From assembly GCA_965248535.1 (NCBI GenBank), contig CBDFJR010000002.1, forward strand, positions 320,001 through 384,000: a DNA stretch of 64,000 bases, in the 5' to 3' direction. Positions 53,556 to 57,287 of this stretch are shown here, piece by piece. The first letter of the stretch is position 1. Each line of letters begins with the position of its first letter. This stretch comes from Phormidesmis sp. (GTDB lineage: Bacteria; Cyanobacteriota; Cyanobacteriia; Leptolyngbyales; Leptolyngbyaceae). Both the position numbers and the translations under genes were made by a program. The notes below the pieces were generated by a model. The model did not search any database and was not told the origin of the DNA. It saw only the letters and a list, made by a program, of their open reading frames with translations.

Positions 53556-54815
53556 ATGAACTTCACTCAGCAAATTAGAGAAAACTTAGAAAATCCCGGT
53601 GAGTTAGAGCGGCTGTTTCAAGAAGATTCAGAAGCTTTTCGAGTTGCTTTTGAGTCAGTGTTTGCCGAAAATCCCGATGCGATCGTGTTAAAAGTCTGGC
53701 ACGAAAGGCTTCATTTTCAGCCAGTTCAATTAAATCAATCTCGCTTTGTCTTTGCAGACAGCATTTTAATCCTAGTTCTCTGTTTGTTTGCAGGAACGAT
53801 CGCCAAACTTCCCGCTTACTTTCCTCAACTGTCAACAAGTTGGTATTATCCAAGAAACATTGCTTTCGTCATTTTCCCAGCCCTTGCTGCTTATTTTCTG
53901 ATCAAGAATAAGCCTGGTAAAAGTATTTTTGGGGCCAGCGTTGCGCTGTTTTTTCTGCCGCTCGTTTTCATCAATACACTACCAAATTTAGATCGATCGG
54001 ATACTGTGATTCTGTCTTGTCTGCACTTACCTTTTTTCCTGTGGGCAGTTTTAGGTTTTGTCTTCACAGGTCAGGATGTTAGGAACAGCGATCTCCGGAT
54101 GGCATACCTTAAATACAATGGTGAGATGTTAATCTACACTACACTGTTCATCATTTGTGGCAGTGTACTAGTTACAGTCACAGCCGGACTTTTTTCTGTG
54201 ATTTCGGTGAATATTGACAAGCTTTACTATGAGTACATTCTTATCTATGCACTGTGTGCAGCCCCGATCGTGGCCACTCATCTAACTCATGCCCAAAGTC
54301 GTTTAGTGGGTAATTTGGCACCCACGATCGCTCGAATTTTCAGTCCCTTAGTGTTGTTGACTTTGGTAGTTTACCTGATCAGTATTTTGACTTTACAACG
54401 CAATCCATTTACTGATCGAGAGTTTCTGATAGTGTTTAACGTGATGTTATTAGGAGTGTTGGCGATCGCGGTTTTCACGCTGTCCGAACGAGCGTCTACT
54501 CCTAAAAAACTGGTTGGAGATTACATTACTTTTGCGCTGATTGCGATCGCGCTGATTGTAGATTCAGTTGCCCTAGCAGCGATCGTGTTTCGCCTTGCAT
54601 CCTATGGCACTTCGCCAAACCGAGTGGTTGTTCTGGGCGCAAATTTCTTGGTGTTTGGCAACTTAGCAGGAATGTTGGTGCAGTATGTGCGATTCTTTTT
54701 GGGCAAAGTCGCGATCGCCTCGATCAAAAACTGGATTACAGGATATTTGCCCCTCTATGGAGCTTGGACAGCGATCGTACTATTTGCTTTTCCGTTTCTC
54801 TTCTCGTTTAAGTAG
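53556..54815 (+). CDS. Multi-pass membrane protein (DUF4153-like)
   Basis: About 11 TM segments; W.ERL and YGTSPNR motifs; lower GC. Confidence 0.7.
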   Translation: MNFTQQIRENLENPGELERLFQEDSEAFRVAFESVFAENPDAIVLKVWHERLHFQPVQLNQSRFVFADSILILVLCLFAGTIAKLPAYFPQLSTSWYYPRNIAFVIFPALAAYFLIKNKPGKSIFGASVALFFLPLVFINTLPNLDRSDTVILSCLHLPFFLWAVLGFVFTGQDVRNSDLRMAYLKYNGEMLIYTTLFIICGSVLVTVTAGLFSVISVNIDKLYYEYILIYALCAAPIVATHLTHAQSRLVGNLAPTIARIFSPLVLLTLVVYLISILTLQRNPFTDREFLIVFNVMLLGVLAIAVFTLSERASTPKKLVGDYITFALIAIALIVDSVALAAIVFRLASYGTSPNRVVVLGANFLVFGNLAGMLVQYVRFFLGKVAIASIKNWITGYLPLYGAWTAIVLFAFPFLFSFK

Positions 54816-54884
54816 ATTTGGGTAGCCTAAAGTTAGGGAGCGTTTCCTAAAAGGGGATATCGACGACTCCCTAACCTCAACTTC

Positions 54885-55256
54885 CTATAGTTGAATGGTT
54901 GTTTTGTTGTGCAACTCCTCTACTTGAATCAGTGCACCACTACCCAGAACAATGTTGAATTTCACTAAAGAACGTTCAACCTGATAACCGGGCAACACTC
55001 GAACAACTTGATACTCTGTGGTCAAATCACTCGTGCCATCCCACTTCAGAAATGCCAGTTGATTGGATGCGATTTCACTCAGTTCTGAGACAAACTCTTC
55101 AATGCTGTCGCTAACATTCACGAGAATGCCAGACGGCACAAAGAGATAACGCTCTTGTAAATCCAAAGTCACACTCACCCGATATCGCTTTTCGATTGAG
55201 AATCGCAACTCAACCGTAAACGAAATCGAGCTAGGCACGATCGTCCTAACTGCCAT
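54885..55256 (-). CDS. Orphan hypothetical protein (123 aa)
   Basis: AAGAGGA RBS inside a hairpin; downstream hairpin GTTAGGGAG/CTCCCTAAC. Confidence 0.65.
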   Translation of the reverse strand: MAVRTIVPSSISFTVELRFSIEKRYRVSVTLDLQERYLFVPSGILVNVSDSIEEFVSELSEIASNQLAFLKWDGTSDLTTEYQVVRVLPGYQVERSLVKFNIVLGSGALIQVEELHNKTTIQL

Positions 55257-55273
55257 AGTTTTTGTCCTCTTAG

Positions 55274-55393
55274 TTAAGTTAAAGAGGACAAAAACGCGGA
55301 TCTCTCAGACATTGGGTTGGGGTGAAATCTGTATGCAGGATCTTGATTCCAGCCTTTCAAGATCCCATAGCAAAGCCGACGGTGTACAATCAT
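55274..55393 (-). CDS. Putative 39-aa leader peptide (not in ORF track)
   Basis: Perfect AGGAGG 5 nt before ATG; MIVHRRLCYGILKGWNQDPAYRFHPNPMSERSAFLSSLT*; stop codon lies in the hairpin loop. Confidence 0.55.
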   Translation of the reverse strand: MIVHRRLCYGILKGWNQDPAYRFHPNPMSERSAFLSSLT

Positions 55394-55396
55394 GAA

Positions 55397-55487
55397 CGCC
55401 TCCTGAGTTATGAACGCTAACTAGGGATGGAAGTCCTCGGAGTTCTGATGCGCCACATCAGACTTCGGGGCACAACTCCATCACTGC
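55397..55487 (+). ncRNA. Putative cis-antisense RNA
   Basis: TACAAT at 55385-55390; long hairpin 55426-55482 with G-U pairs valid only on the + strand. Confidence 0.5.
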
Positions 55488-55677
55488 GGTGTATTGTACA
55501 AGAGTTTTTTGTTTTTTGGAATGCTGAGTTTTTTGGAGAGGGAAGCGATCGGTTTTTGGGGAAGAGAGGGGGGCGATCGTGAATTCTCCCTAATTTATGT
55601 TCCAGTCGTTTACTTTCGGCTCCCTCAAAATCGAAAACTCTGAGCGCCATTCCGTATAATTACCCGAAATCGGAGAG

Positions 55678-55769
55678 TTATCCTGTGGGAATTCAGGATA
55701 ATTCCTGAAGAAACAGGAGTTATCCTGAATTCCATACGGCATAGTTTCTTTGAAGGAGTATTTATCCTG
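55678..55769. repeat. TTATCCTG array and 20-bp inverted repeat
   Basis: Direct copies at 55678, 55720 and 55762; inverted copy at 55694; inverted repeat 55688-55707/55714-55733. Confidence 0.7.
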
Positions 55770-55843
55770 TTTGATAGGAGTTCAAACGGCAGAAATAATA
55801 GTTAGACCTCAAATTCAGTTATTTCCCACGAAGCATAATCACC

Positions 55844-56275
55844 ATGAAAAAGCTTGTTGCCTGTATTGCCTGCCTCACGGTTGCCTTACACTTAAATCTC
55901 GCTATTGCGAATGCTCAGCGAAGTAGTCGTTCGCTTTGGAATGCCTTTGTAGAGGGAGTTTTTAGTGAGTTTGGAGCACAAGCTACACGGGGAATTCTCG
56001 ATGTACTATTTGGTTCAAGTGGTAATGCACAAGTTGCCCAGAGGTCACAAAGACCAATTATCTGTATTGTTAATGATCCAACTGATACACCTCTCAACGT
56101 TAGAGAAACACCTAATGATCCTGTGATTCTGGCAAGTTTGCCTAGTGGACCGAGAGTAATTCCTTACAAGATTGGATACGATGAGAGAAATCGTTATTGG
56201 GTTCTTGTGGGAGACTCTAAACAACCTTGGGGTTGGGTTTTTGGAAGTTATGTATCGTGCGGATTGGATTCTTGA
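55844..56275 (+). CDS. Secreted protein with SH3b-like domain
   Basis: Signal peptide MKKLVAC...ANA; VNDPTDTPLNVRETPN...WV...GWV. Confidence 0.75.
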   Translation: MKKLVACIACLTVALHLNLAIANAQRSSRSLWNAFVEGVFSEFGAQATRGILDVLFGSSGNAQVAQRSQRPIICIVNDPTDTPLNVRETPNDPVILASLPSGPRVIPYKIGYDERNRYWVLVGDSKQPWGWVFGSYVSCGLDS

Positions 56276-56340
56276 TTCAGGCTTGGTCAGGCTTGAGACT
56301 TGTAAAATAAATTAAAATATTGACAGCTCTGAATTGAAGG

Positions 56341-56852
56341 TCACTCGCCTGCAATTTGCAAAATGGTTGTATACAGTTCATTACCAACGCGAAAATCAGC
56401 TTGTTCAACCAATTGATCTACCAGTGGTTTAACAGCTTCAATTAAGTTGTTTTGTTTCGCTTGAACAAGTACACCCAATAAACCAGTGACCTGCAAACCA
56501 TAGCTTGTTGCCACAATACGCCCTCGGCGTTCATCCATTAAAAGTAAATCAGCTTTGAGTTCTAATGCTAGGGCGATCGCTTCAGCTTCACCCAAGTCAA
56601 TGTTTTCTTCACTTTCCTGAATTGTGCTTACTCGTTGTTGATCCACAACTGCCTGAGTTTGAATCCAGGGTAAGGTTTGCACCTCCATAGCACCAGGAAC
56701 AGGTTTACCGACATTGACCATCTCGTCGTAGACGGCTACTGGAATAATGATGCGGATATACAGTCTTTGTAGCAAATCTAGCTGTCCAATAGCTAAAAAA
56801 ACACAAAAGCTGCTAGATTCGTAATCGGTGATGTATCACTAACAACAATTAC
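56341..56852 (-). pseudogene. DUF3368 / PIN-like toxin disrupted by a 17-bp insertion
   Basis: IVVSDTSPITNLAA [insertion] IGQLDLLQRLY...DLGEAEAIALA..LMDERRGR. Confidence 0.8.
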
Positions 56853-57094
56853 AATAGCCTCATCGACTGCAAAGTCTTAACATCTGCCTGAAAATCCTCG
56901 ACATCATAGTTGATGTAAAGCCCTCGCTTAGCAAGTTCGTGCTGAAACTCAATTACCGTCAGTCCAGTCCAAGCACGAGCCTTGCCACTACTGATTTTTT
57001 CTTGCTTGTAGAGCATAATAGCGATTTCTAGTTTTAGTTCATCCTCCGTCATTCTTGTTGCGCGGAGAATGTCGTCAGGGATTAAGACAGTCAT
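56849..57094 (-). CDS. UPF0175 family antitoxin-like protein
   Basis: ELKLEIAIMLYKQEKISSGKA...EFQHELAKRG..INYDVEDF. Confidence 0.85.
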   Translation of the reverse strand: MTVLIPDDILRATRMTEDELKLEIAIMLYKQEKISSGKARAWTGLTVIEFQHELAKRGLYINYDVEDFQADVKTLQSMRLL

Positions 57095-57164
57095 AAGAAT
57101 TATGCTTGGAATCGCTTACTCTACAATTTTAAGGTATGGGGAGCAGAAGCGTGGGATAGTCGCA

Positions 57165-57251
57165 GTCTAACAACCCGGTTGGAGCGGACTGACGCGAGAT
57201 CTTAGTGGGGGAACAAAGATTCATTGCAGCCGCTTAACCGGAACGTTCTAC
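57165..57251 (+). mobile_element. Integron attC-like recombination site (87 bp)
   Basis: R'' GTCTAAC, 5-nt spacer, L'' GGTTGGAG ... L' CTTAACC, 5-nt spacer, R' GTTCTAC; arms carry two unpaired bases. Confidence 0.72.
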
Positions 57252-57287
57252 TGCTTGAGATTTCTGTAAGGACAATTCGCCTCCGCT

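Follow-up and report, generated by a model that had tools for sequence, protein, structure and literature searches.

The hairpin region flagged in the window (by which we mean the whole 64,000-nt stretch of Phormidesmis sp. DNA that was analysed) is the control region of a small repeated gene that lacks a family match. The gene encodes a 123-aa protein on the minus strand and is preceded by a leader ORF (uORF), upstream of which lie two hairpins with 7-nt loops. Comparison of the copies supports the view that selection on these hairpins (55406-55482) acts on the plus strand, the one opposite to the gene. The reading that we favour, with moderate confidence and from sequence comparison and analogy, is that a cis-antisense RNA would block translation of the leader ORF, and hence of the gene coupled to it, by means of loops that are specific to each copy. 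The coordinates of the features are collected in Table 1.

Table 1. Features of the repeated module in the window copy (positions are those of the window)
Feature	Position	Strand	Details
3' stem-loop GTTAGGGAG / CTCCCTAAC	54832-54875	-	After the stop codon; left edge of the repeated module
123-aa ORF	54885-55256	-	From the ORF list; no family, no fold match
SD-hiding hairpin	55258-55295	-	14-nt arms, 100% complementary inverted repeat; from the predicted fold
Leader ORF (uORF)	55274-55393	-	39 codons; from the ORF list
Hairpin GGATCTTGA / TCAAGATCC within the leader ORF	55338-55365	-	9 bp, invariant; from the predicted fold
Candidate antisense -10 box TACAAT	55385-55390	+	Over leader-ORF codons 2-3
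Leader-ORF SD site AGGAGG	55399-55404	-	Five bases before ATG 55393-55391
Hairpin H1	55406-55422	+	5-bp stem AGTTA/TAACT; 7-nt loop 55411-55417
Hairpin H2	55426-55482	+	Long stem, apical stem CTGAT/ATCAG; 7-nt loop 55450-55456
Candidate mRNA promoter	55493-55521	-	-10 TACAAT/TAGAAT 55493-55498, -35 TTCCAA 55516-55521, 17 nt spacing
T-runs	55505-55510, 55512-55517, 55529-55534	+	Right edge of the module at ~55533

Nucleotide matches identified window positions 54885-55533 as one of 17 copies of the module in its own genome. A wider query (54824-55808) gave 16 further matches there at 86-93% identity, and a covariance model built from copies of the genus (R1) returned exactly the same 17. The 123-aa ORF is present in all 17 (intact in 16, broken in one), as are at least 250 bp upstream of it, the flagged hairpin region included. 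RNA motif and gene always occur together. Flanking genes differ between copies, and no other ORF family recurs at more than four of the 17 loci. When the 17 copies of this genome were aligned with 55 from relatives (72 in all), the conserved core began at the stop codon (54885) and extended to about 55533, beyond which conservation drops.

The 123-aa protein belongs to a family of 410 near-identical members (E up to 0.001). Nearly all of the at least 120 members that were listed are 123 aa long and 81-100% identical, and the source annotation of these, where given, is 'hypothetical protein' of Phormidesmis. A search of 61 related genomes located the family in the own genome and in all seven others of the same genus (4-21 matches each) and in none of the 53 genomes of other genera; the RNA motif was likewise absent from 150 other cyanobacterial genomes searched with model R1. 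The sequence-only reading of this region had proposed a three-tier switch of antisense RNA, leader peptide and hairpin-gated orphan gene. The three tiers stand as sequence features conserved in the 72 copies and in a distant homolog described below, but a gene with 410 near-identical relatives and 17 copies in its own genome is no orphan.

The ORF is under purifying selection, with a diversity of pi 0.089 at codon positions 1 and 2 compared with 0.307 at position 3 and 0.349 at four-fold sites. AlphaFold2 with a 36-member family alignment (A2) predicted a fold of three strands, a 30-residue helix and three further strands (pLDDT 90.3, pTM 0.84), and the single-sequence prediction was useless (pLDDT 40). 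The protein is predicted to be soluble and would not be the small hydrophobic peptide typical of type I toxins. No match was obtained in Pfam, NCBIfam, PADLOC, PHROGs or ESM Atlas. Extending the Pfam search to E 0.1 gave no Hok/Gef or SymE match and a sole row, a sub-threshold CtsR; NCBIfam gave no SymE match either, and neither of these two collections matched the protein to a transposase family. At the level of the predicted fold, there was no match in the PDB (best Foldseek E 0.076, best VIA Z 4.7), no viral match (Foldseek against BFVD) and no AbrB-type chain among the fold matches listed. Two matches from a search of representatives, to proteins of 2642 aa and 394 aa, were discarded as repeat artefacts, the latter being a tandem reverse-transcriptase fragment.

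On the minus strand, an A-tract lies upstream of the candidate mRNA promoter. The -10 box reads TACAAT in 23 and TAGAAT in 47 of the 72 copies (column counts), and the TTCCAA 17 nt upstream of it is conserved among copies. About 90 nt of leader separate the promoter from the leader ORF, whose SD site has a diversity of only pi 0.009 in the 72 copies. The leader ORF consists of an ATG and exactly 39 codons in 66 of the 72; the exceptions are four copies with 37-40 codons, one that is truncated and one with a mutated start. Codons 20-33 vary equally freely at the three codon positions (pi 0.27, 0.24 and 0.27), with gaps in two rows only. The frame is maintained and the middle of the peptide evolves neutrally, as expected if translation through to the following hairpin matters. 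Codons 1-19 are near-invariant at every codon position (pi 0.02-0.05), which points to a constraint on the nucleotides and not on the peptide; the invariant 9-bp hairpin within the leader ORF lies here, and the region 55335-55410 as a whole has pi 0.031.

The leader ORF ends 16-18 nt before the ATG of the main gene, with its stop codon TAA (55274-55276) inside the loop of the SD-hiding hairpin. The SD of the main gene, AGAGGA (55265-55270), lies in the 3' arm (mRNA sense) of this hairpin, and the core pairs GTCCTC/GAGGAC are nearly invariant in the 72 copies. The stem-loop that follows the gene may be the 3' end of the mRNA; it is only partly conserved, and its pair counts are mixed, without clear strand bias.

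On the plus strand, the TACAAT box is unchanged in 70-72 of the 72 copies and has no -35 box. A sigma-70 consensus scan flagged neither of the two TACAAT boxes, because neither has a good -35, and the window contains 16 such hexamers where 18.4 would be expected, which is not above chance; what lifts the boxes above chance is their conservation. Segment 55397-55486 of the plus strand complements the leader exactly and overlaps, at its 5' end, the AGGAGG of the leader ORF, so that CCUCCU, the complement of this SD, would sit at the 5' end of the candidate antisense RNA. The long hairpin H2 is built from the arms GATGGA (55426-55431) and TCCATC (55477-55482), CCTCGGAG and CTTCGGGG, and CTGATG and CATCAG. 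The first T-run begins 22 nt after H2, and a terminator scan called none at 55505-55534, where the arrangement is not canonical. These T-runs are a possible 3' end of the candidate antisense RNA and are equally explained as parts of the mRNA promoter, namely its spacer, -35 box and A-tract. A plus-strand ORF of 51 aa (55427-55582) was rejected because of polymorphic 1-nt indels inside it. The elements that the sequence-only reading had pointed out, namely two facing TACAAT boxes, the three pairs of hairpin arms, T-runs after the hairpin and the AGGAGG of the uORF that a plus transcript would cover, are all present in the sequence. The smaller hairpin H1, which precedes H2, was not among them.

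The decisive comparison is between the folds of the two strands, and it favours the sequence-only reading. The plus strand of 55397-55486 folded at -35.9 kcal/mol (z -3.9), with none of 200 shuffles as good, and the minus strand at -29.8 kcal/mol (z -2.0), with ten of 200 as good. A typical copy of the genus had a z of -2.55 when its antisense strand was folded and of 0.01 for the sense strand. When 27 pairs were scored in 64 distinct copies, 1717 of the 1728 cells were paired on the plus strand compared with 1492 on the minus strand. G.U pairs filled 228 cells on the plus strand and three on the minus strand. The plus-strand G.U pairs fall at six positions, two of them fixed and four polymorphic (GC/GU or UA/UG), and six helix positions become C.A mismatches on the sense strand. 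Caution is called for in that the strand bias by itself, counted as six events, would arise by chance with a probability as high as ~1 in 64. In every case, the stem polymorphisms keep pairing on the antisense strand only. In all 64 distinct copies (64 of 64), stability was greater on the plus strand, the mean difference being 10.9 kcal/mol. The earlier proposal of a structured antisense element was supported in that the plus-strand fold beats its shuffles and is the more stable throughout, and the two G-U pairs that it had assigned to the plus strand alone were confirmed and joined by four polymorphic ones of the same kind.

That reading had also suggested covariation and Rfam analyses as checks. 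Within the genus, none of the 27 pairs showed a change on both sides, so that strict covariation rests on a single distant homolog, in which compensatory changes were found. Rfam gave no match at gathering score for 54500-56500 on either strand (E up to 10); the best rows were chance microRNA-like matches at 55661-55757, outside the flagged region.

The homolog came from a profile search of 401 class-level genomes, which gave one hit outside the genus, in Microcoleus sp. FACHB-1515 (G128), a member of another cyanobacterial family. It is a single-copy gene of 124 aa and is 46-49% identical, a figure stated against other distant relatives. Its antisense strand folded at -40.9 kcal/mol (z -4.1, none of 200 shuffles as good) and its sense strand at -22.3 kcal/mol (z -0.8). 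Model R1 matched the antisense strand over its full length (31.4 bits, E 8e-8) with all pairs canonical, and in H2 the apical stem is fully rewritten around a loop that has kept its 7 nt. G128 has kept the fold on the antisense strand through compensatory changes. The remaining layout recurs as well: a canonical mRNA promoter (TTGACA-17-TATACT) ends 11 nt before the hairpin, the leader ORF begins MILRQLC (MIVHRQLC in the window copy), and the gene is preceded by a hairpin that has the leader-ORF stop codon at the loop and an SD, GGGAGGA, in the 3' arm. Antisense to leader-ORF codons 2-3, G128 has TAAGAT at the place of the TACAAT of the window. As read from the predicted fold, its SD-hiding hairpin and the hairpin within its leader ORF have their G.U pairs on the sense strand, which fits two RNAs, one per strand. 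Family alignment A3 recovered only this homolog from genome contigs and none from metagenome contigs, and alignment A2 recovered none from viral contigs. Loci in metagenome contigs that matched a DNA pattern (at least 120 stretches) were dismissed as chance, since none of the 80 that were fetched encodes the family.

These data bear on an alternative without any antisense RNA, in which the structure is solely that of the 5' leader of the sense mRNA and serves, for example, to stabilise it or to bind a protein. The mRNA promoter is indeed well placed, 11 nt before the hairpin, and is the canonical one in G128; the apical 5-bp stems are pure Watson-Crick and form on both strands; contigs from RNA libraries cover leader and gene together; and the antisense side has neither a -35 box nor a called terminator. 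We nevertheless regard this explanation as improbable, because the sense strand has the six C.A mismatches and 1492 paired cells where the opposite strand has 1717, because shuffled sequences fold as well as the sense strand of the typical genus copy (z 0.01) and of G128 (z -0.8), and because the polymorphisms of the stems all preserve pairing on the antisense strand only.

The most telling feature of the module, which is absent from the earlier reading, is that both 7-nt loops are hypervariable. Their diversity is pi 0.647 in H1 (55411-55417) and 0.535 in H2 (55450-55456), compared with 0.018 for 55418-55449, 0.018-0.031 for the loop surroundings, 0.349 for four-fold sites and 0.53-0.67 for unrelated flanks. 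Among the 71 loops of each kind that were parsed, the first loop occurs in 48 distinct forms and the second in 32, and the 17 copies of the own genome all carry different loop pairs. In 24 pairs of copies at an ORF distance of 0.03-0.06, the first loop was common to none and the second to 4%; likeness of the loops does not follow ORF distance. By contrast, the window copy is identical in both loops to its positional ortholog in one relative (G007; same contig, same flank order), although the ORF distance between them is 0.23. A further six sets of copies with one flank 83-96% identical, their orthology resting on that one flank only, differ in one or both loops, which argues against a simple rule that loops are stable in orthologs.

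Both loops are anticodon-like, are kept open and carry the U-turn signature. Positions 1 and 7 could form a Watson-Crick pair in none of 46 distinct first loops and in one of 27 distinct second loops of 7 nt, where chance would give a quarter. Position 2 is U in 35/46 first and 21/27 second loops, and position 6 of the second loop is A in 21/27, giving the pattern Y-U-NNN-A-N. First loops start with YUNR in 16/46 cases on the plus strand and in 4/46 on the minus strand. The U-turn is a loop form typical of fast-pairing antisense loops. The loops had no better complement in their own element or its 300-nt flanks than the loops of other copies had, and the first loop (L1) is not complementary to the second (L2); these comparisons rule out a target-site code like that of introns as well as an internal pseudoknot. 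The lack of a better complement elsewhere fits a partner that is the exact opposite strand. Hypervariability of the loops could also reflect relaxed constraint while gene conversion homogenises the rest.

An RNA selected on the plus strand might act in another manner, either as a ligand of the 123-aa protein, as in type III toxin-antitoxin systems, or in trans as a small RNA, for example against foreign nucleic acids. Such a role would accommodate the selection of structure on this strand, the anticodon-like loops that differ between copies, and the joint occurrence of motif and gene (17/17, with none in the 150 other cyanobacterial genomes). The protein alignment, however, has no hypervariable patch to match the loops, and within its own element and flanks a loop finds no better complement than the loops of other copies do. 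The anti-SD at the 5' end and the full overlap with the leader are, moreover, what a cis-antisense regulator needs. We therefore give this alternative a low probability.

Our preferred reading, cis-antisense control of the leader ORF, can be laid out as follows. The mRNA would start on the minus strand near 55486, and ribosomes finishing the leader ORF inside the hairpin loop would open the SD-hiding hairpin, so that the 123-aa gene would be translated only when the leader ORF is translated. On the plus strand, an RNA of ~90-140 nt would start a few bases after TACAAT 55385-55390, near 55397. Its 5' end would be the complement of the leader-ORF SD, followed by the two hairpins with their 7-nt loops. 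These loops would be the first to meet the matching loops of the mRNA leader ('kissing'), and from there, if hok/mok/sok and Sib/Ibs are a guide, pairing would extend across SD and start codon, shutting off both ORFs. Since the loops differ between copies and the rest of the overlap is near-identical, the main target of each antisense RNA would be the mRNA from the same copy.

Four RNA-library runs of relatives (ice and mat samples) contained contigs over gene and leader, and one contig of 533 nt spans 54982-55410. The contigs are unstranded, match at 80-95% likeness and give no start, end or strand; the module turns up in RNA libraries of relatives, and nothing more is to be drawn from them. 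A drop in depth after 55455 was discarded as a signal, as it coincides with the variable loop, where assemblies break.

Some copies and fragments bear on how the module moves. Solo pieces made up of the last ~45 codons of the ORF and the 3' stem-loop are scattered across related genomes (for example G003:C123:2538-2663 and G001:C12:66456-66590; also L026 842-963), and some solo pieces of the ORF 3' end lie only a few hundred bases from a full copy. Such copies truncated at the 5' end may be a hint on module spread. One copy of the own genome, C5:1690590 (L005), has a left flank that is orthologous in 5/5 relatives searched, all of them without a module at that place; these empty sites indicate that the module has been gained or lost within the genus. 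For the right flank of this copy there was no ortholog in the relatives searched. Exact insertion junctions could not be taken from the empty site, as homology in the relatives stops ~85 bp short of the element and conservation is lacking on its right side.

The dispersal of the module among unrelated neighbours, the empty site of this one copy and the scattered 3' fragments would suit hairpins that act as single-stranded DNA signals for spread of the repeat, like the ends of IS200/IS605 elements or integron attC sites, and the strand bias would fit DNA too, with G.T in place of G.U. This explanation strikes us as very unlikely. The homolog in G128 retains the fold although it is single-copy, and the hairpins lie ~50 nt inside the right edge of the module and not at its ends. 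No terminal inverted repeats or target duplications stood out in a non-systematic look at the alignment, the protein matches no transposase family, and the loops are unrelated to the flanks.

Several observations concern the surroundings of the copies. In the own genome, a copy at C2:1675291-1677557 is split by ~1.26 kb at the equivalent of window position 55504; the insert holds a 342-aa ORF on the strand of the gene and may be an insertion sequence. Of the 17 copies, 8 are followed by a separate repeat of ~200 bp (window 55609-55808), which also has partial, weaker matches at two other places, C2:2140237 and C2:2448467. It contains a 20-nt inverted repeat (55688-55733, 95% complementary) and a promoter-like TCGAAA-18-TATAAT (55631-55660). 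At 55608/55609, the window copy is without a 58-bp stretch that is present in seven other copies. A stretch of ~90 bp at 57161-57256 has four weaker genomic copies (76-79% identity), two of them near module copies. To the right of the module and outside the repeat, 55844-56275 on the plus strand is a gene for a protein of 143 aa, which starts like a signal peptide and matches bacterial SH3 below threshold (E 0.0097). Further on, at 56341-57094 on the minus strand, Pfam matched adjoining DUF3368 (144 aa) and UPF0175 (81 aa) proteins, which we take to be a type II toxin-antitoxin pair.

A more far-reaching version of the cis-antisense reading is that the module is a selfish addiction unit. The 123-aa protein would be a putative toxin with an unseen fold, gated by the leader ORF, and the antisense RNA an antitoxin with a kissing-loop address code that insulates the copies and makes each of them indispensable. 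We put this forward tentatively and consider it rather unlikely as a whole. If it were true, up to ~20 near-identical copies per cell would be mutually insulated and would form a large, self-diversifying type I family in cyanobacteria, for which a single candidate type I system has been published.

The antisense RNA itself, if real, would have wider consequences. Each cell would hold a natural set of near-identical RNA-RNA regulator pairs, apparently kept apart by two 7-nt loops only, in which it would be testable how much sequence antisense specificity needs and how new specificities arise after duplication. A large antisense-controlled family would be added to the cyanobacteria, in which type I-like systems are barely described (PMC12390103). 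A new fold, predicted with confidence, would be tied to a regulated and probably harmful or costly protein. Orthogonal sets of loops could be reused as insulated RNA switches.

Among known arrangements, facing promoters at the end of a repeated element recall IS10. In its RNA-IN/RNA-OUT pair, the promoters stand face to face at the outer end, the outward stem-loop antisense RNA covers the start of the inward mRNA, and the antisense RNA acts on all copies (multicopy inhibition). The module shares the position of the facing promoter boxes; unlike in IS10, its loops would keep the copies apart, and its protein matches no transposase family.

In cyanobacteria, MsoT1/MsoA1 of Microcystis aeruginosa is a candidate type I system and, according to its authors, the first in the phylum (PMC12390103). 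It resembles the module as a candidate type I-like system in a cyanobacterium and differs in that the abstract describes a single pair from a search for small toxins and no repeat, leader ORF or variable loops (PMC12390103). A survey of RNA structures in 202 cyanobacterial genomes used a strategy that, by its own account, excludes antisense RNAs (PMC12873609). Our literature search, which ran outside subscription journals and paper supplements, returned no description of the module family.

The copy-specific loops find their closest parallel in Ibs/Sib of E. coli. There, cis-encoded paralogous antisense RNAs repress their own copy only, with specificity set by two separate recognition domains (PMC2943612). 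The module too has paralogous copies with two variable patches, which by the same logic would confine repression to the own copy. The Ibs toxins are tiny (IbsA of Salmonella has 19 aa, according to a preprint) and come in five copies and not 17. Unlike in Ibs/Sib, the variable parts of the module are two 7-nt hairpin loops, and it has a leader ORF and an SD-hiding hairpin.

Hok is a membrane peptide of roughly 50 aa. The module protein, unlike Hok, has 123 aa, is predicted to be soluble with mixed strands and a helix, and gave no Hok family match. In hok/mok/sok of plasmid R1, Sok blocks mok and thereby hok (PMC4147584). Several traits of that system are also those of the module: the leader is long and structured, the downstream gene depends on translation of a leader ORF (a coupling that is presumed here), an antisense RNA (a candidate one here) lies over the start of the leader ORF and not of the main gene, and the family has several copies (PMC4147584). 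In that system mok overlaps hok, whereas the leader ORF of the module stops before the main ATG in the SD-hiding hairpin; the two hypervariable loops are a further difference from hok/mok/sok. The module is not a member of the hok/mok/sok or Sib/Ibs families, because its protein is large and unrelated, its leader ORF does not overlap the gene and its variable parts are hairpin loops.

A protein of this kind has a precedent in SymE, which at 113 aa is large for type I and not hydrophobic (PMC4147584). A small hydrophobic toxin is typical of type I systems, SymE and RalR being among the exceptions. The sequence-only reading had likened the geometry of the module to symR/symE, and the likeness extends to a candidate antisense promoter inside the 5' end of a reading frame and an RNA that would cover SD and start. 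It ends where SymR covers the start of symE itself and the antisense RNA of the module would cover that of the leader ORF (PMC4147584). Because the start covered is that of the leader ORF, the geometry of the module is closer to hok/mok/sok than to symE/symR.
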